A stretch of 32,361 nt of DNA, from positions 1 through 32,361 of IMG/VR virus record IMGVR_UViG_3300006482_000007. The stretch is one strand, 5' to 3'. The stretch's first letter is position 1, and each line of letters starts with the position of its first letter. The notes beneath the pieces are model-generated. The model did no database searches and was not told the DNA's origin. It worked only from the letters and a program-made list of their open reading frames with translations. The DNA is from a virus (Duplodnaviria; Caudoviricetes). Below, piece after piece: positions 3,735 through 19,426 of the stretch. A program made the translations under genes and the position numbers.

Positions 3735-3762
3735 TATATACTTGAAAGAGAGGTGATTGGTT

Positions 3763-4272
3763 ATGGAGTTGACTGAAAAAGAAAGACTTATTTTATATAA
3801 TCAATATGAAATACTAAAATTATTAAACCCTGAAGAAAAGGAATATTATGAGAGAGATCAAGAAATACTTATTAATGGATTTAAATACAATTATGATAAT
3901 TTAGTAGAGGGGTTTATGAATGAAACCTCAGAAGAAGTATCACAATTCGTAATTGACGTATTGCAAATGCATAGAGTATTAAATAATTCATACGATAAAT
4001 TAAAGGATGATGAAAAATCTCAAATAGATCTATATGATATAAGTTTTAAAGGTTTTGACGGTAATGAAGAAATTGACTATTATGTTTATGCTAAGTTCTA
4101 TTTAGAAAAATTAGATAGATTTGGAGAGTTAAAAGAATCTAAATATTATGCGGTAAACTCACACACAAACATGCTTAATGATTATCGTAAAATGGTAAGT
4201 TTATGGAAAGAAGTTAAAACTGGTAGATACAATAATGTGTCATTAAAAAATATGCAATATATAATAGGTTAA
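3763..4272 (+). CDS. YfbU (UPF0304) family protein, moron
   Basis: MELTEKERLILYNQYEIL...FKGFDGNEE...NSH..M...Y..M is characteristic of YfbU. RBS GAGGTG fits ATG 3763; has its own promoter and terminator. Confidence 0.75.
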   Translation: MELTEKERLILYNQYEILKLLNPEEKEYYERDQEILINGFKYNYDNLVEGFMNETSEEVSQFVIDVLQMHRVLNNSYDKLKDDEKSQIDLYDISFKGFDGNEEIDYYVYAKFYLEKLDRFGELKESKYYAVNSHTNMLNDYRKMVSLWKEVKTGRYNNVSLKNMQYIIG

Positions 4273-6131: not shown

Positions 6132-7517
6132 ATGGCGATAAGAAAGAAAACACCGTTTTTTCAAACATCAAGTATAAGTATAGATCCACAAAGCGTGTAT
6201 AAACTTATAGCTAGACATAAAGAATTTCAAGAGAAGTTCAGAACAAATGAGATGTATTATTCTGATGAACATAAAATACTTTCTAGGCAACAAAAGGATG
6301 ACAGCAAACCTAATAATAAGATAATACAAAGCTTGCCTGCTTATACAGTTGATATAAGAACAGGCTATTTTAGTGGAGAACCTCTTACTTTTGCTTGTGA
6401 GGATGAAGAGCAGCAAGAACAAATAACAAATATATTAGAATATAACGATTTTCAAGATATAAACTCGGAGCTTGACCATTATAGCTCAATACATGGTCAA
6501 GCTTTTTTAATTGTCTATATTGATGATGATAATAATATAAGATTAGCAGTTGAAACAGCTGATAATTGCTTTGTAATCCATGATAATTCACTATCTAAAA
6601 ATATGATTGGTGCAATAAGATACTATGAATATGAGGATATAGTTGATAATGAAATAAAAATGGATGTAAGACTTTATACAAAGGATAAAATATATCATTT
6701 TAAAGGTCCAGAAACTTCATTAGCTTTAGTTATAGATGAAGATGGAAAAGAAGACGTACAACCTCATGACTTTGGAGATGTGCCTGTTATAGAATTTGTT
6801 GAAAATGCAGAAAGAAGAGGATGTTTTGAAAAGCAAATTACTCTAGTTGATGCAATAGAAAGTATATTATCATCTTCAATAAATGAAGTAGAGTACTTTG
6901 ATAATGCTTATTTATTATTAAGGAATCTATCTGGTACAGAAGAATCAGATATAGATGACATGAAAAATAATAGAGTTATGTTAGTGGATGAAGATGGAGA
7001 TGCTAAATTTTTAACCAAAGAAATTAATGATACTTATATACAAAACAATTTAAATAGATTAGTAGCTGACTATCACAAATTAACTAAAACTCCACCACTG
7101 ACAGATGAAAACTTTGCAGGCCAAACAAGTGGAGTTGCTCTTAAATTTAAGCTATTTGGATTAGAAAAAGATATGGCCAAGAAGGAAAGTAAGTGGAGAA
7201 AGTCTATTCAAAGGATGCTAGAAATTGTAACTAATATCTTAAATATTAAGAATGGAAGTAGTTATGACTATAGAAAAATAAAAATTACATTTACTAGATC
7301 ATTACCAACTAATATAACAGAAACTGCTGATATGGTTAGTAAACTATCTGGAATGCTTTCAGATGAAACATTAATATCTCAATTGGATTTTGTTGAAAAT
7401 GCTAAAACTGAAATAGAAAAGAGAAATAAAGAACAGGAAGAACAAGTTAAGAATATGGATTTGTATAATGATTTTGGAAGTGATAAAGGTAAAGCTATAG
7501 AGGAGAATGAGGAATAA
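6132..7517 (+). CDS. Portal protein, SPP1 gp6-like
   Basis: Follows terL; GYFSGEP, HDFGDVPVIEF, SGVALKFKL and ITFTRSLP motifs. Confidence 0.92.
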   Translation: MAIRKKTPFFQTSSISIDPQSVYKLIARHKEFQEKFRTNEMYYSDEHKILSRQQKDDSKPNNKIIQSLPAYTVDIRTGYFSGEPLTFACEDEEQQEQITNILEYNDFQDINSELDHYSSIHGQAFLIVYIDDDNNIRLAVETADNCFVIHDNSLSKNMIGAIRYYEYEDIVDNEIKMDVRLYTKDKIYHFKGPETSLALVIDEDGKEDVQPHDFGDVPVIEFVENAERRGCFEKQITLVDAIESILSSSINEVEYFDNAYLLLRNLSGTEESDIDDMKNNRVMLVDEDGDAKFLTKEINDTYIQNNLNRLVADYHKLTKTPPLTDENFAGQTSGVALKFKLFGLEKDMAKKESKWRKSIQRMLEIVTNILNIKNGSSYDYRKIKITFTRSLPTNITETADMVSKLSGMLSDETLISQLDFVENAKTEIEKRNKEQEEQVKNMDLYNDFGSDKGKAIEENEE

Positions 7518-8062
7518 TGAATTTATATTTTGATACAGAATTTACAGGATTACATAAAGATACAACATTAATAAGTATAGGAATTATATCAGAAGATAAC
7601 AGAACTTTTTATGCTGAATTAAGAGATTATGATAAATCTCAAGTTGACGATTGGTTACAAGAACATGTAATAGATAATTTATATTTAACAAATCTGTTTG
7701 GAGAAGAAGGAATAGTGTCACCCATTACTTCGACTGATTTTATAATGACAGGAAATATGAAAGAAGTTGCGACAGAATTAAAAAAATGGATAAAGCAATT
7801 TGATAATATAAAAATATGGTCAGATTGTTTAGCTTACGACTGGGTATTATTTAATCATTTATTTGGTCATGCTTTTAATTTACCTAAAAATATATATTAT
7901 ATTCCTTTTGATATATGTACATTATTTGAAATCAAAGGTATAGATGCGGATATATCAAGAGAGGAATTTATCAATAATTCAGTAACAGGAAATAAACATA
8001 ATGCTTTATACGATGCAAAAGTTATAAAAGCTTGTTATGAGAAGTTGATGACAAATGAGTAA
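7517..8062 (+). CDS. DEDDh 3'-5' exonuclease (Rv2179c/DUF5051-like)
   Basis: YFDTEFTG (Exo I), AYDW (Exo II), HNALYDA (Exo III); translationally coupled to the portal and MuF genes. Confidence 0.8.
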   Translation: MNLYFDTEFTGLHKDTTLISIGIISEDNRTFYAELRDYDKSQVDDWLQEHVIDNLYLTNLFGEEGIVSPITSTDFIMTGNMKEVATELKKWIKQFDNIKIWSDCLAYDWVLFNHLFGHAFNLPKNIYYIPFDICTLFEIKGIDADISREEFINNSVTGNKHNALYDAKVIKACYEKLMTNE

Positions 8063-9326
8063 GTCTAAGCAGTATTGGCTAGATAGAATGTTAGAGAGGG
8101 ATAAAGCTGCTAAGTTATCAGAAGATAAGATTCTCGAAGAATTAAACAAATACTATACAGATTCATACATAGCAATAGAAAAGGAACTAAATAATTTCTA
8201 TGTGAAATATGCTACTGAAAATGGACTATCCTATAATCAAGCTAGAAAAATACTAACTCCTAAAGATATAAGAGAATACTCTTCTAAAATAGGAGAATTG
8301 AAAAAGCTATATGAAGAAACAAAAGATATTAATGTGTACCTTAAAATGCAAGAAATAGGCTCTAGGGCTAACGTAACAAGATTACAGAGTTTATTAGATT
8401 CTATTGACATAGAATTAATAAAAAGTGCTCATAATACTCAAATAAGCATAGAACAACATCTATCAAATATGTATAAAAGAAGCTATAAGCAATCTTTAGA
8501 AGATATAGGAACTAGTAATAAAGCAATTAATAGTAGAGCAGTAAAAGAAGCTTTAAGTTATCCTTGGAGTGGTAGGAATTTTAGTGAAAGAATATGGGGC
8601 AATAAAGCTTCTACTATGAATGTGTTGAAGGAAGCTATATCAAAAGGAATTATCCAAGGCCAAAGTATTCAAAAGATGGCTAAAAACATTATGGATAAAG
8701 AAAATGTTTCTAAATATAATGCAGAAAGATTAGTTAGGACAGAAACTAACTTTCATATGACCAAAGGACATATTGATGGATACAGAGAAAGCGGAGTAGT
8801 TAAAGCTGTAGAAATATGTGTACATTGGGATGAAAGAACATGTCCGGACTGCGAAAGTATGGATAGGGAAGTTATACCTTTGAATGAAGTGAGTTACGGA
8901 AGTAATGTTCCGCCATTTCATCCATTCTGTAGATGTACTGTTGTTCCTGTAGTTGATAATAATGAAAAAACTGGCTATAATTATAATGAGGATGGAACAA
9001 TAGTTGTGACACACGATTGTAAAGGGGAACATGTTAGTATTCCAAGAGAACTTGAACCTTACGCAGTCTTAGAAACTGATGCAAAGTATAGAGATGGTTA
9101 TTATCAAATTGACAGAACTTTATATGACGAAAATAAAAAAATGCATATTCAGATACATTCGGGGCATCATGACAGACCTGATAAGCATCCATATGGAGAA
9201 AGTGGAGAGCATAAGCACATTTACACTTGGCATAAAGATAATCCAAAGCCTGATAGAACATCAGAGGAATTAAATGATGAAGATAGAAATCAAAATAAAG
9301 ATATAATTAGAAAAGGAGGTAAGTAG
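8055..9326 (+). CDS. Minor capsid protein (MuF/SPP1 gp7) with C-terminal toxin-like extension
   Basis: WSGRNFSERIW, AERLVRTET and DERTCPDC...PPFHPFCRCT MuF core, plus ~110 extra His-rich residues (RTLYDENKK..QIHSGHH..HPYG..GEHKHIYTW). Confidence 0.85.
   Translation: MSKSKQYWLDRMLERDKAAKLSEDKILEELNKYYTDSYIAIEKELNNFYVKYATENGLSYNQARKILTPKDIREYSSKIGELKKLYEETKDINVYLKMQEIGSRANVTRLQSLLDSIDIELIKSAHNTQISIEQHLSNMYKRSYKQSLEDIGTSNKAINSRAVKEALSYPWSGRNFSERIWGNKASTMNVLKEAISKGIIQGQSIQKMAKNIMDKENVSKYNAERLVRTETNFHMTKGHIDGYRESGVVKAVEICVHWDERTCPDCESMDREVIPLNEVSYGSNVPPFHPFCRCTVVPVVDNNEKTGYNYNEDGTIVVTHDCKGEHVSIPRELEPYAVLETDAKYRDGYYQIDRTLYDENKKMHIQIHSGHHDRPDKHPYGESGEHKHIYTWHKDNPKPDRTSEELNDEDRNQNKDIIRKGGK
8953..8981 (+). 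promoter_or_regulatory. Internal sigmaA promoter at the MuF/toxin junction
   Basis: TTGATA (8953-8958), 17 nt, TATAAT (8976-8981). Confidence 0.55.
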
Positions 9327-9548
9327 ATGGATTTAAAACAATTGAAAGAAGACTTATACACTAATGACGTATCATTTCAATATAATGATAAGGACTATGT
9401 AATAAATCCGCTAGACAAATTTTATGCTGGAGAAGCAGGAAATAGCGAAGATGATAATGAGTTTGATACCTTTGAAGATATGGCTGAAAATTGGATTATA
9501 GAAGGTAAAAAACTAAAAGATATTGTAAAGTTTATAAAATTAATATAA
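9327..9548 (+). CDS. Candidate immunity protein for the MuF toxin
   Basis: Small acidic ORF abutting the MuF stop codon, strong RBS AAGGAGG, followed by a terminator. Confidence 0.6.
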   Translation: MDLKQLKEDLYTNDVSFQYNDKDYVINPLDKFYAGEAGNSEDDNEFDTFEDMAENWIIEGKKLKDIVKFIKLI

Positions 9549-14267: not shown

Positions 14268-14578
14268 TTAACCTCCTTCAGATAGTTGACAATTTGTTTA
14301 AAAAATTAGTCGGTGGTATGAAAATGTCACCGGCTTCTTTTTATGAATTGACTATTAGAGAAGCCACCTTAGTTTTAGATGGATATGAAGAAGAGAAAAA
14401 AGATAATTACAACCTTAATCTTCATGCGTTTTATAATGCCCTTGGCCTAATTCACGGAGGGAAAAAATTTAAAATGAAAGATCCTTTTAAAGCTATTGAA
14501 AATACACATAAAATCTCCATGGATGAAAAACAAGAAAGATTAGATTTTCTAAATGAGAAATTTGAGAAGTGGAGGTGA
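14264..14578 (+). CDS. Tail assembly chaperone frameshift extension (gpT analogue; ~214-aa fusion)
   Basis: In the -1 frame relative to 13935..14267, lacks its own RBS; MSPASFYELTIRE motif is typical of gpGT C-terminal parts. Confidence 0.8.
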   Translation, partial: VINLLQIVDNLFKKLVGGMKMSPASFYELTIREATLVLDGYEEEKKDNYNLNLHAFYNALGLIHGGKKFKMKDPFKAIENTHKISMDEKQERLDFLNEKFEKWR

Positions 14579-14584
14579 GAATAA

Positions 14585-15172
14585 ATGGCAACAACAGTTG
14601 TAAGCACTAAGTTAAACCTAGATATAGGCAACTTCAAAAGCAAAATGCAAGATGCTAAAAAATCTATTGAAGATTTGCAGAAAAGTTTCAAATCTGCAGG
14701 TGGCAAGAGTTGGGATCCTTTTAAATCTACTGATTTAGGTAAAAAGATAGATAACATCAAAACAAAAGCCGGTAATTTAGGTGAAACATTTAAAGCATTA
14801 CCTGGTCCTGCTAAAGCTGGTGCAGTTATAATTGCAGTTACAGCATCATTAAAAAAGCTATATGATTTAGGGAAACAAAGATTCTTTGAAGGTTTATTAG
14901 ATATAAAGGATACAATATCACCAGTCCTCAATGGCATTACAACAGCTATAAATACAGTTAAACAAGCATTTACAGAAATTACAGGCTTTAATTTTAATTT
15001 TACTTCGATAATTACAACGGGTGTAAATTTTGAAGCACAAATGAAAAAAGTTGCCACGATTGCAGGTTCTATCGGTACAGAATTAAATCAATTAATTTCA
15101 AAAGCTAGAGAATTAGGAGCAGCAACTACTTTTAGTGCTACAGAGGTTGGAGAAGCTATGCAATATATGGCT
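14585..15172 (+). CDS. Tape measure protein, exon 1 (196 codons)
   Basis: FEAQMKKVATI...ARELGAATTFSATEVGEAMQYMA is the start of the PhageMin_Tail domain; it breaks off at GCT 15170-15172 and resumes at 16199. Confidence 0.9.
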
Positions 15173-15239
15173 AAACATACATGGCCAGCTATAAAGAAAT
15201 TTATAGTAAAAAACAGTGGGTTAAAATTGGAAAGCTAAG

Positions 15240-15268
15240 TTTACAAAATTATAAGAATGTACTACTAT
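15240..15268 (+). promoter_or_regulatory. Intron-internal sigmaA promoter for the HNH gene
   Basis: TTTACA (15240-45), 17 nt, TACTAT (15263-68), ~35 nt upstream of ATG 15304. Confidence 0.55.
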
Positions 15269-15303
15269 ATTAATATACAATATATGGCAGGGTGGTGCGT
15301 GAA

Positions 15304-15993
15304 ATGAAAATGTGTTCGAAGTGTAAAATAATGAAAGATGAAAGCGAATTTCATAAACACTCTAGAACTCAAGATGGATTAAGAAGTGTATGTAAGGAAT
15401 GCAGAAAGATAGAAACAAAAGAGTATAGATTTAAATACAGAGAAGAAGTTTTAGAAAGAAAAAGAAAATGGTATGAAGATACAAAAAACAGAAAAGAAGA
15501 AAGATACAGTAATGCTCCTAAAAGTAAAATTTGTTCTGAATGTGGAGAAGAAAAAGAAATTTCTGAATTTAGAAAAAGAGCAAACGGCGGATATTATGGA
15601 AAATGTAGAATATGTGAAAATAAAATAAATCGACAATACGCCAAGGATAACCCGGAAATAATTAGGCAAAATAAAGTTATAACAGAGCAAAGAAGGAGAA
15701 AACAAGCTAAAAAAGTAAAAAGCACATTTACTAGAAAAGATTGGAAAGAATGTAAGGAATATTTTAATGGAATGTGCGCTTATTGCGGAAAGAAACTAAC
15801 AAGCTTAACTCAAGACCATTTTATACCACTTTCTAAAGGGGGTACATACACAAAAGAAAATATAATACCGGTTTGTAGAACCTGTAATTCATCAAAACAC
15901 AATTTTGATTTTTATGAATGGTATGTAAAGTATGAACACTATTCAAAAGAAAGAATTAAAAAAATAGAAAGTTATTTCGAAAGCCTAAAATAA
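15304..15993 (+). CDS. Intron-encoded HNH homing endonuclease with two N-terminal zinc-ribbon repeats
   Basis: CSKC..CKEC and CSEC..CRIC repeats; CAYCG...DHFIPLSKGG...NIIPVCRTCNSSK HNH core; RBS GGGTGGTG fits ATG 15304. Confidence 0.9.
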   Translation: MKMCSKCKIMKDESEFHKHSRTQDGLRSVCKECRKIETKEYRFKYREEVLERKRKWYEDTKNRKEERYSNAPKSKICSECGEEKEISEFRKRANGGYYGKCRICENKINRQYAKDNPEIIRQNKVITEQRRRKQAKKVKSTFTRKDWKECKEYFNGMCAYCGKKLTSLTQDHFIPLSKGGTYTKENIIPVCRTCNSSKHNFDFYEWYVKYEHYSKERIKKIESYFESLK

Positions 15994-16009
15994 TAGGCTT
16001 TTTTATTTT
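15981..16009 (+). terminator. Intron-internal terminator after the HNH gene
   Basis: AAGCCTA-AAATAA-TAGGCTT followed by TTTTATTTT, overlapping the HNH stop codon. Confidence 0.55.
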
Positions 16010-16198
16010 GTAAATAAGCTAATCAATTACCAAACTACATAGGGATATGTAGAAGGTTTAGAGACTAGGAGAAATAGACTAGAACAGTTGAAACTCCCAC
16101 GAAATCCACTACCCTAACGTAAAGACGAGGGTAAAGAGATAGTCCAACTCTAGGTGAAAGCCTAGTCCTAGGATAAAGAGCCTAGGCAATGAAGTTAG

Positions 16199-19100
16199 AT
16201 GGCTGGCTGGTCAACATCGGAAATGCTAGATGGAGTACAATCAACACTTAATTTAGCTAAAATTGGTTCTACTGATTTAGGAACAGCATCGGATATTTTA
16301 ACTGATGATTTAACTGCACTTGGTATGAGTGCTAATCAAGCAGGAGATTTTGCAGATAAATTAGCAGCAACAATAACAAGAAGTAATACAGATGTTGTAC
16401 TATTTGGGGAGTCAATGAAACAAACAGGAGCGGTTGCAGGTGCTCTTGGTGTATCTATGACTGATTTGTCAACTGCAATTGGACTTCAAGCTAACGCAGG
16501 TATAAAAGGCTCAAAAGCAGGTATGTCATTAAAAAACTTGTTTACAAACATGGCCAACCCTACAGATAAAATGACTGCAGCACTTGAAAAATTAGGTATG
16601 ACTGCAGACCAATCAGGCTCTTATTTAAAAACTACAGCAGATGGATGTACAGATTTGGAAGCTACTGTTAAATCATTAAAAGAAGGAACTGATGGTATGA
16701 CAAGAAGTCAAAAGGCTTCTTTAATAGCTACTGTAGCTGGGAAAAATGCATTACCGGGTATTATGAGTTTGATAAATGCTTCTACAGAAGAATATAACAG
16801 TTTATCTGAAGCTGTAGATAATTCAACTTCTACAGTTGCAATGTTTAATGAAAATATGAGTGTACTTGGACTTAGTGGAAAAGGTGCAACAGATGCAATA
16901 CAAAATATGAAACAAGTATTTTCAGATACAGAGTTAAGTGCGACAGCTTTAGGATTATCAAGTAAAGACTTAGGATTCTCTATATCATTATTAGGTGATG
17001 ATAGTAAAGTAACTAAAGATAATGTAGAAGACTTATTAGATGTAATAGATAGCATGAATAATGCGAGCGGTAAAACTGATACTGCATGGAGAAATCTTGG
17101 AAATGCTGAAAACTTAGATTTAAATAAATATATAGATTATAACTCTACATTAGGCGAGATAGATAATTCTATAGTAGGTTTAAGTGGTTCTCAAAAAGAC
17201 CATGTAAAATCGTTAATTAAAGAAAATATGACTGTAGATGAAGCTAACAAAGTATTAAAACAATATGGATTATCAGCTAAACAAGTATCTTTATCAACAA
17301 TGACAACGTCTGAAAAAATGGATTATCTAAGAAATTCACTAAAAGGTATGTCAGATGAACAAATAAAATCTGAATTAAGCAACCTAGGTTTAGCAGATAG
17401 CTTTGAAGAAGTTAACGAAATAGTAGATATGTCAGATGATAAATATTCTAAGTATAAAAAGAATCTTGAAACTATTCAAGGTCTATCAGATAGAATGGCT
17501 AAAAGTATAGATGAAACTACAAAATCAGCATTCTTTGCTCTATCTAGTGCTATGGAAGATACTTTATTAGGCGCTTTTGATAGATTAAAACCAGCTTTGC
17601 TAAGTGGAAGTGAAGCTTTAACAGATTTCTTTGGTACATGGAGAGGTCAAGATGGTAATTATAGTTTTAGTGGATTTGAACAAGGATTAAATGATCTAGA
17701 AAGTAAAGTTGAACAAGCATCTAATAATATTCCTTCCTTAATGAGTAACATGTTTGATGGAATTAATAGGTTTATCAGCGGAGGAGCCTTAGACAACATA
17801 CTTAAAATGGGTGGAGATATAGTAACAGGTATTTGTGATGGAATTATAAAAAATAAAGATAGTATAAGTCAAGGTATAACTGAATTAATAGGTAAAGTTT
17901 GCGAATGGATAGATAAGAATGGGCCAAAAGTTATAGAGGCAACAAAGACGATAATATCATCACTTAAGGAAGGTCTTGTCAAAAATGCAGGTCCTCTAGA
18001 AAGTGCTGCTGAAACTGTCATGAACATGGTTAATGCATTTCTTATTGGAAAGCAGGATTTAATACAAACTGCGGGTACTATTGTAGGACCAGCTTTTATA
18101 AAAGGCTTTGTACAAGGAGCAGTAATAGAAGGTGTTAATACAATCGGAAACGGCATACATGCGATAGTTACTACAATAGGCTCTTTCGTAGGCGATTTTG
18201 CTAATGCAGGAATAGACTTAGCTGTCGGTTTTGTAGATGGTTTAATGGGGTTCCTATTTGACGTTGGATTTTGGGATGAAATTAAAACTAAAGTCATGGA
18301 ACTTGATGAATGGTTAGGAAACTTTAAATTTGGTGAAAACGGAGGAGCGACTACAAAAGCACAAGATGCAGGTGTTAAAATAGGAGCGGCAAGAGGGAAA
18401 GGTGAAGCCGAAGGTAGAAACAAATCATTAGAAGAAAGTTCAGAGGAAACTAAAGCGATAGCAGACAAACTTGGTGACGATTTTTCTCAAAATATGATTA
18501 AAAAACTTGAGCAAATGGATGGAAAAGAGCTTAAATCATTGCAGAATGAAATGAAAAGCTTACAAACTACAATAAGCGAGGTAGCAACAGGAATAGGTGA
18601 AAGTTTTGGAAAGATAAGAGAAAGCGTTAGAACTAATCTTATGGGAGTTACCAATATTGGAAGAAATCAATTTGTAAACTTGTCTAATATAGTAAGAAGT
18701 CAATGTGTAAATCAAGCTAATATAGTTCGTAACCAATTTACTAGTATATCTAATGTGGTTCGCAATCAATCACAAAATGCTAGAAATTCAGCTACAACAA
18801 GTTTCATAAGTATGAGTAAAGTAATATCAACTCAATGTACAAATGCTAGAACTGCAGTTGTATCTAAAATGATGAGTATTAATGCGGTAGTAAATACTCA
18901 AGCGTGGAAAGCTAGAGATAATGCAACTAGAGCATTCATGAGTTTAGCAGCAGTAGTTAGAACTCAAATGTCTAGTGCTTTGAGTTCTGTTAGAAATGCA
19001 ATGAGTCAAATTGCATCTGCCACTAATAGAACTTTAACTACTAAAGTTAATGTATCCAAGACTATTACAACTACAAATGTAGCTAAAAGTATTCAAGCTA

Positions 19101-19426
19101 AACCACAAACATTTAACTTTTCTGCAGCTAGAAGCATTCAACCGCGATTATTCAGTTTAGCTGCAACTAGATCCTTAGGAGGAATTAACTCATTAGCTAC
19201 TGCTAGTTATGGTTCACCTGTAGCTTTAGCGAGTACAAGTAGTGGAGTATCTGGAAGTACAACTTATGGAGGAACTAAAGGAACTTCTAAAACAAATAGC
19301 AAACCTGTATATTTTGATATATCTATACCTATTGATGGTAAAGAAATAGCTAAAGCATCTGCTAAGTATATGGATGGAGAATTAAAAATTATAAATACAA
19401 GAAGTAACAGAAAAAAAGGACGATAG
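16199..19426 (+). CDS. Tape measure protein, exon 2 (spliced product 1271 aa)
   Basis: MAGWSTSEMLDGV..TLNLA...GIKGSKAGMSLKN continues PhageMin_Tail; no RBS before ATG 16199; hydrophobic segments, 11-aa repeats and C-terminal IDGKEIAKA motif. Confidence 0.92.
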   Translation: MAGWSTSEMLDGVQSTLNLAKIGSTDLGTASDILTDDLTALGMSANQAGDFADKLAATITRSNTDVVLFGESMKQTGAVAGALGVSMTDLSTAIGLQANAGIKGSKAGMSLKNLFTNMANPTDKMTAALEKLGMTADQSGSYLKTTADGCTDLEATVKSLKEGTDGMTRSQKASLIATVAGKNALPGIMSLINASTEEYNSLSEAVDNSTSTVAMFNENMSVLGLSGKGATDAIQNMKQVFSDTELSATALGLSSKDLGFSISLLGDDSKVTKDNVEDLLDVIDSMNNASGKTDTAWRNLGNAENLDLNKYIDYNSTLGEIDNSIVGLSGSQKDHVKSLIKENMTVDEANKVLKQYGLSAKQVSLSTMTTSEKMDYLRNSLKGMSDEQIKSELSNLGLADSFEEVNEIVDMSDDKYSKYKKNLETIQGLSDRMAKSIDETTKSAFFALSSAMEDTLLGAFDRLKPALLSGSEALTDFFGTWRGQDGNYSFSGFEQGLNDLESKVEQASNNIPSLMSNMFDGINRFISGGALDNILKMGGDIVTGICDGIIKNKDSISQGITELIGKVCEWIDKNGPKVIEATKTIISSLKEGLVKNAGPLESAAETVMNMVNAFLIGKQDLIQTAGTIVGPAFIKGFVQGAVIEGVNTIGNGIHAIVTTIGSFVGDFANAGIDLAVGFVDGLMGFLFDVGFWDEIKTKVMELDEWLGNFKFGENGGATTKAQDAGVKIGAARGKGEAEGRNKSLEESSEETKAIADKLGDDFSQNMIKKLEQMDGKELKSLQNEMKSLQTTISEVATGIGESFGKIRESVRTNLMGVTNIGRNQFVNLSNIVRSQCVNQANIVRNQFTSISNVVRNQSQNARNSATTSFISMSKVISTQCTNARTAVVSKMMSINAVVNTQAWKARDNATRAFMSLAAVVRTQMSSALSSVRNAMSQIASATNRTLTTKVNVSKTITTTNVAKSIQAKPQTFNFSAARSIQPRLFSLAATRSLGGINSLATASYGSPVALASTSSGVSGSTTYGGTKGTSKTNSKPVYFDISIPIDGKEIAKASAKYMDGELKIINTRSNRKKGR
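18650..18980 (+). repeat. About ten degenerate 11-aa (33-nt) repeats in the tape measure protein
   Basis: TNIGRNQFVNL / SNIVRSQCVNQ / ANIVRNQFTSI / SNVVRNQSQNA / RNSATTSFISM, etc. Confidence 0.7.

Follow-up and report, generated by a model that had tools for sequence, protein, structure and literature searches.

Homing-nuclease control is known mostly from lytic T-even phages. In the td intron of T4, the gene for I-TevI is served by an internal promoter, its ribosome-binding site (RBS) is hidden in a hairpin on which efficient splicing depends, and the nuclease binds an operator resembling the homing site as tightly as the target while cutting it about 100-fold less well (PMC2988022). With this system, together with I-TevII and I-TevIII of the same phage, the locus described here shares an intron-loop nuclease gene and, as predicted, an internal promoter, an RBS-hiding hairpin, and a candidate operator similar to the homing site. 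The Bacillus cereus-group introns TMP-IVS1-3 resemble it in intron class and host gene, being IA introns in prophage tape-measure genes, one of them with an endonuclease that most have lost; the word "promoter" is absent from the main text describing them (PMC2504315). Endonuclease-bearing tape-measure introns in prophages (PMC2504315) and the regulatory trio (PMC2988022) are thus already known. Intron-encoded HNH proteins include the nickases I-HmuI and I-HmuII of Bacillus HMU phages, which cause marker exclusion (PMC2988022), as well as gp210 of PhiPA3, which attacks the intronless allele by nicking and causes interference with a related phage (PMC11620839), while free-standing HNH genes are the subject of PMC12724721. 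Prophage morons are likewise independent transcription units in phage genomes (PMC3594210).

The window, i.e., the whole stretch of DNA analyzed here, is a linear virus record (32,361 bases, 69% complete) that comprises the late genes of a long-tailed phage, and the exon and intron features given below lie on its + strand. Its tape-measure frame is broken after the codons YMA and resumed at MAGW, so that exon 1 (14585..15172, ending in ...QYMA) is separated from exon 2 (16199..19426, starting with MAGW..., with the 12-mer ATGGCNGGNTGG whole at 16199-16210) by an interruption of 1,026 nt. This interruption is a group I intron of the mobile kind, and its HNH gene probably constitutes an insulated, probably self-repressing homing cassette with predicted transcription by the host housekeeping polymerase. 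Named relatives of the HNH protein are from Paraclostridium sordellii, Clostridioides difficile, and Clostridium species.

Several features elsewhere in the window should be mentioned. Between the tape-measure gene and the first tail-chaperone-like ORF, directly 3' of the latter, a hairpin of 12 pairs followed by a U tract (14308-14345) may be a terminator or a frameshift stimulator. A YfbU-domain gene (3757-4272, E 3.5e-43), possibly an accessory gene, is inserted before the small terminase gene, and a gene for an Rv2179c-like 3'-5' exonuclease (7517-8062) lies between those for the portal and a MuF-like head protein. The latter (8055-9548) has a C-terminal extension beyond the Pfam domain, which is divergent in RNA-library relatives, and is directly followed by a 73-aa gene; extension and small gene presumably resemble a bacterial toxin-immunity pair on MuF.

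The intron (15173..16198) displays a P1 with a U-G pair, a P3-P9 core, and a terminal G in both sequence and fold, and was classified by eye as IA-type from the extra stems after P7. P1 to P9 are readable in the sequence and were mostly recovered when the intron was folded without its insert. The internal guide sequence (15183..15187) pairs with exon-1 positions 15168-15172 to form P1; the 5' strands of P3, P4, and P5 of the ribozyme core occupy 15215..15238, and the 5' strand of an extended P5 occupies 15233..15249. The 3' part (16005..16198) begins with the 3' strand of P5 (16005-16020), followed by P4', P6, P7, P3', P8, and P9, with the helix being called P5 by eye from its position between the P4 strands. 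Rfam model RF00028 aligned only around this 3' part, with 36.5 bits (E 2.7e-7) and hence under the cut-off of 50, likely because the insert splits the core; at curated cut-offs, Rfam gave no match in the window. In an annotated phage collection, 6 short matches were obtained, none spanning the intron element.

A joint of 15172 to 16199, skipping the 1,026 nt, is present in contigs from 2 of 4 RNA-library runs, whereas the contigs of the other 2 runs break at the splice sites; contigs other than the joined ones contain intron sequence. These data are contigs from a single study (two samples, four runs) that may contain DNA. The joined contig differs from the window at 1 of 278 bases in exon 1 and 43 of 596 in exon 2, and exon 2 of the intron-side contigs is similarly diverged. 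The joined contig probably reflects splicing of an intron-bearing relative; it could instead be DNA of an intronless allele.

Loop L5 of the intron contains the HNH ORF (15304..15993), which starts with ATG at 15304 (or GTG at 15292) and stops with TAA at 15993. The encoded protein of 229 aa comprises two CxxC/CxxC modules, long helices, and a C-terminal DH...N...N nuclease domain, as supported by a profile match (PF01844, E 5.9e-14), by conservation, and by a confident structure model (pLDDT 93, pTM 0.55) in which long helices and two zinc modules accompany the HNH domain. H176, N190, N199, and four Cys are invariant in 23 HNH sequences, and judged by its sequence, the active site is intact, with catalytic and zinc residues kept. 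The best solved relative is 4h9d, which matches the HNH domain only, and none of the I-HmuI structures was matched by the family profile. For 7 of 9 pairs, dN/dS values of 0.09-0.14 were obtained, with 0.32 in one near-identical pair and an undefined value in the remaining one.

In order to place the cassette within its family, 174 non-redundant HNH relatives with a usable start were collected from loci of three collections. A first intron pattern had been too loose, yielding 119 loci that were mostly chance matches, of which 17 with flanking tape-measure exons were kept by eye in addition to the window. Among the 174 relatives, 17 are located in tape-measure introns, or 16 once one with an identical upstream region is removed. 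These cassettes are inserted at three points that lie within a few bases of one another in the codons for YM[AG]xAGW, and form one clade with two subgroups in a quick tree (SH-aLRT 93); counts out of 16 therefore overstate independence. Furthermore, 25 intron records share the core motif of the window: 8 bear the HNH gene, 5 have it deleted with the terminator kept, and 12 have a short L5, so that HNH is missing from 17 of 25. The 5 deletions (L123, L128, L130, L141, and L146) are one and the same 732-nt event (window 15245-15976) that removes the -10 box and HNH, and the same deletion is found in RNA runs X6 and X7 from 2 other studies. In sister introns devoid of the ORF, P5 ends in a short loop, so that the P5 extension bearing TTTACA arrived with the HNH cassette.

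Recent transfer of the intron between alleles is well supported by comparison of sequences, since between the window and four loci, identity reaches 98-99% in the intron core and only 61-66% in the exons. This agrees with the earlier proposal, made from the sequence of the window, that the nuclease is active in homing. In one lineage, exon-1 positions -1 and -7 distinguish every one of 13 intronless alleles from the sisters that bear the intron, which suggests conversion, and hence probably cutting, on the exon-1 side. Intronless targets are common, with these 13 records in one lineage and 11 of 14 fetched tape-measure loci being uninterrupted, 9 of which carry the Ala-Gly-Trp motif. As to an HNH-bearing intron residing together with an intronless target, no genome number is shared between the 13 intronless and the 2 HNH-bearing records of that lineage; genome G001 contains only its own tape-measure match, and 383 scored genomes of one family contained no new close cassette.

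The related loci harbor additional mobile elements. A second homing gene (HTH and LAGLIDADG_3, E 5e-14) is located in P9 of the intron in L230 (3902-4663) as well as in L247 and in 6 of the 25 intron records (L126, L133, L135, L137, L138, and L139); this cassette has a near-consensus promoter with a 17-bp spacer and its own predicted RBS hairpin, with no evident terminator, and in P9 of L233, no ORF of at least 80 aa is left. In L230 (4709-4897) and in L245 (downstream of exon 2), the tape-measure frame is broken once more after some 35 codons of exon 2, and the intron-like sequence that comes next is probably a second intron in the same gene. On a Salipaludibacillus contig (L149, 5998-7000), a site-C-type HNH gene with the 3' intron half and a terminator lies antisense inside an integrase-bearing element without a tape-measure gene; no target copy is visible upstream, and the unit looks like an ectopic insertion. 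Free-standing members of the HNH family (L151, L153, L248, L249, L279, L315, and L355) often have extended -10 promoters upstream and are in this respect moron-like.

Upstream of the HNH gene, a sigmaA-type promoter, TTTACA-N17-TACTAT, is predicted at 15240..15268, with a 17-bp spacer and a predicted start near 15275. Its -35 hexamer (15240-15245) is contained in the 5' strand of the extended P5, an extension that is missing in the 12 short-loop introns among the 25 sister records. Taken alone, the window promoter is at chance level: it matches the consensus at 9 of 12 positions, 94 sites of such grade were found in 19.3 kb as compared to 102.7 in shuffles, and 10% of its own shuffles score as well (p = 0.10, 200 shuffles), which places it among the weakest of the 16 cassettes. 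Its support therefore comes from conservation in relatives. In 14 of 16 cassettes, an automatic scorer assigned a promoter with a 17-bp spacer to the corresponding position, with the -10 box being placed by hand in the other 2 (L240 and L246), and in 11 of 16 the promoter beats its own shuffles at p<=0.03. Across 10 aligned cassettes, T and A of the -10 box are invariant and the spacer is variable, and several relatives have a consensus -10 with an extended TG. About 21% of the 141 other homologues reach the same score band, suggesting that own promoters are common in the wider HNH family.

At the other end of the gene, an intrinsic terminator is predicted at 15979..16009. The loop of its hairpin (15979-16002) contains the HNH stop codon, and the U tract, which extends to 16009, overlaps the 3' strand of P5. 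The hairpin has a folding energy of -10.3 kcal/mol, and only 1 of 200 shuffles is equally stable. Terminators overlapping a stop codon can work in Firmicutes. A putative terminator was detected in 14 of 16 cassettes. Of the 11 site-A/B cassettes, 9 have it within L5, just 3' of the stop codon, and all 5 site-C cassettes have it beyond the 5' strand of P7, 38-100 nt past the stop codon; none was detected in the remaining 2. The late transcript must read through this in-intron terminator, and it still must do so in introns with the 732-nt deletion, which keeps the terminator. Other terminator-like sites are present in the late region of the window, so that read-through would probably be needed anyway. 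A role of P5 as an antiterminator was considered and discarded, as its 3' strand is mostly synthesized past the termination point.

The first-pass annotation of this DNA had described an HNH ORF looped out of an extended P5, a -35 box within the 5' strand of that helix, and a terminator hairpin with a U tract overlapping the HNH stop codon, and all three are found in place, with the P5 strands at 15233-15249 and 16005-16020, the promoter at 15240-15268, and the terminator at 15979-16009. Its conclusion that the gene is a self-contained transcription unit sparing the ribozyme core is strengthened by the relatives, where promoter spacing is conserved and putative terminators occur in two intron positions.

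A hairpin predicted at 15257..15300 from fold energies and shuffles pairs the spacer/-10 region with the Shine-Dalgarno sequence and would thereby hide the RBS. Since transcription from the predicted start would begin downstream of the 5' arm, the hairpin is predicted to form only in read-through RNA. Accordingly, opening the RBS of the window is calculated to cost 11.3 kcal/mol in read-through RNA vs 3.6 in RNA from the predicted start, and in all 16 cassettes it is dearer in the long than in the short RNA, by 2.9-13.6 kcal/mol. The hairpin beats shuffles of the upstream sequence (<=5 of 100) in 13 of 16 cassettes, and both the sequence and the register of the pairing arm vary among lineages.

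The predicted start and RBS are furthermore covered by a copy of the tape-measure homing site (15274..15295), identified by sequence match and in relatives, which is a candidate operator. In the window, it agrees with the last part of exon 1 at 14 of 15 bases, and ATGGCNGGNTGG, a 12-mer, has just two occurrences in the 32 kb, one at 15284 and the other at 16199. The 9-mer GCNGGNTGG was found with at most 1 mismatch within 85 nt upstream of all 16 cassettes (12 exact), compared to 13 of 141 homologues outside tape-measure genes (2 exact) and to 7.5% of 8,000 shuffles (0.4% exact). It lies over the RBS in 11 cassettes and over the -35 box in the 5 site-C cassettes, i.e., at two positions about 40 nt apart within diverged surrounding sequence, and its frame relative to the ORF is not conserved. 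None of the 19 other homologues with a GGnTG RBS has GCn before it, which, together with the -35 location in site C, argues against the copy being a by-product of the RBS. The codon before Ala in the copy is ATG in 11 of 11 Met-target cassettes and Leu/Phe-like in 3 of 4 Leu-target lineages, and thus tracks the host target in most lineages. Since the 16 cassettes are one clade with two subgroups, these counts correspond to about two independent positions of the copy, not 16. Two other explanations of the copy were rejected: an alternative splice site, as a U is lacking at the 5' site and a G in front of it, and a coding relic, as the frame relative to the ORF varies. Taken together, the predicted promoter and RBS hairpin and the target copy match the design of I-TevI, a known autorepressor.

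Two parts of the first-pass annotation fare less well in light of this copy. Expression of the nuclease had been called constitutive, whereas each of the 16 cassettes has a target-like site lying across its promoter region, a trait known from the I-TevI autorepressor. Likewise, it had been assumed that the intron protects its own allele by splitting the site, which is doubtful, because ATGGCNGGNTGG is whole in exon 2 and a second copy is found in the cassette. With the 12-bp core whole in exon 2, immunity would likely be conferred by loss of a cleavage element within the last bases of exon 1. Moreover, I-HmuI nicks intron-containing DNA too, so that self-protection by splitting cannot be assumed.

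We propose the following course of events. The late transcript would be spliced at 15172/16199, restoring the tape-measure frame, as seen in a close relative from contigs that may be DNA. In this long RNA, the predicted hairpin would mask the HNH RBS and spare the folding ribozyme from ribosomes. The internal promoter is predicted to fire inside the hairpin and to give a translatable RNA of about 15275-16005, ended by the terminator, that omits the ribozyme core and would not leak into tail and lysis genes. As inferred from I-TevI, the HNH protein would then bind the target copy on its own promoter and keep its level low. An intronless tape-measure allele may arrive via superinfection, co-infection, or co-residence, whereupon the protein would bind the conserved Ala-Gly-Trp codons and cut or nick on the exon-1 side, and repair would copy the intron. 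Low-level expression of HNH in lysogens is plausible, and we consider it slightly favored. In a phage able to be a prophage, nuclease kept at a low level would already suffice for homing, because it is through superinfection that an intronless allele arrives; any harm done to incoming phages would be a side effect of homing, and defence is not needed to explain the design of the cassette.

Other readings differ in what the target copy does and in when the promoter is used. The copy could be a relic of cassette formation that is held by RBS and hairpin constraints, with weak expression and no autorepression. It does overlap the Shine-Dalgarno sequence in 11 cassettes and the 5' arm of the hairpin in the site-C cassettes L313, L317, and L250, and since one arm or the other of the hairpin is overlapped in at least some members at both positions, RNA pairing could help to preserve the copy; the origin of the cassettes in one clade points the same way. 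However, constraints of this kind sit poorly with two positions in diverged flanking sequence and with a codon before Ala that follows the host target, and L149, the sole clade member outside a tape-measure gene, has no such site upstream, which makes a relic improbable. A second reading accepts the promoter and confines its activity to lytic growth, i.e., early infection or the time after induction, with the terminator merely insulating downstream genes. As the phage apparently lacks its own polymerase and sigma factor (none of the latter was found among 18 and 7 scanned proteins, one gene encoding a phage transcription regulator), the timing would follow the T4 scheme but use a host promoter, and T4 intron nucleases are confined to middle/late infection (PMC2988022). 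The RNA libraries are compatible with it: runs X1-X4 cover the whole late region including HNH, X6 and X7 represent the HNH-deleted intron, X5 and X9 contain scraps only, and HNH-only cover was found in 0 of 8 runs out of 16 listed, although contigs cannot show ends or levels. On the other hand, no repressor site apart from the target copy was seen, and a consensus -10 with an extended TG, as present in several relatives, normally fires in a lysogen. We therefore regard exclusively lytic use as unlikely, if less so than a relic.

Furthermore, the first-pass annotation had put forward steady expression from a silent prophage that blocks intronless superinfecting phages, with the cassette being kept for that benefit. 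Insulation by promoter plus terminator suits expression while the late genes are off, 3 of 8 related virus records carry a provirus classification, one related cassette lies on a bacterial genome contig, and the abundance of intronless alleles provides targets; in addition, the intron HNH nickase of PhiPA3 strongly inhibits PhiKZ (PMC11620839). Against this, constitutive output is at odds with a candidate operator in every cassette, HNH is missing from most sister introns (17 of 25, 5 of them by one deletion), and 2 cassettes have no detected terminator. HNH gain and loss fits the selfish cycle described in PMC2504315. PADLOC gave only weak matches to the generic HNH domain among defence families (best E 3.3e-7 over 44 residues), and no integrase or recombinase match was obtained in the window, a record that is 69% complete. 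Steady prophage defence is thus as improbable in our view as a relic, and a defence reading of the cassette in general is hardly more likely. An intermediate scenario combines repression with response: a silent prophage would hold a self-buffered pool of nuclease, and the higher-affinity intronless site of an invader would titrate the protein off its promoter, raising expression and cutting the essential tail gene of the invader. If true, this would be a one-gene sensor and effector, providing ambush homing plus superinfection defence; we consider it unlikely as well, marginally more so than purely lytic use. Our preferred reading therefore remains a self-repressed homing cassette.

In comparison with known systems, this cassette would, by analogy, work like I-TevI while standing outside the I-TevI family. 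T4 is strictly lytic and uses phage late/middle promoters, and I-TevI is a GIY-YIG enzyme, whereas the cassette of the window has a sigmaA-like promoter and a predicted in-intron intrinsic terminator, encodes a Zn-finger/HNH protein with a C-terminal nuclease domain, and is inserted in L5; some carriers of related cassettes are proviruses. Interference by PhiPA3 gp210 was shown for lytic jumbo phages in co-infection, while for the present cassette it is supposed, and the main text of PMC11620839 contains neither "lysogen" nor "prophage". Unlike morons, the unit lies within the loop of a ribozyme, has bases in common with the P5 helix, and codes for a homing nuclease. In mostly open-access literature, covered at the level of main texts, no paper was found on this HNH family or on a lysogen-expressed intron nuclease, nor, within the same scope, on a host-type promoter with an in-intron terminator or a target copy at two positions. 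The promoter-overlapping target copy predicts the binding site of an uncharacterized Zn-finger/HNH nuclease family, and the cassette makes intron homing from a silent prophage into superinfecting phages, as well as protection of the lysogen, testable. The same three controls known from T4 have apparently been rebuilt in tape-measure cassettes on a host promoter, with a terminator inside the ribozyme and in phages able to be prophages; even if expression in lysogens fails, the cassette would still be a clear case of convergent regulation.
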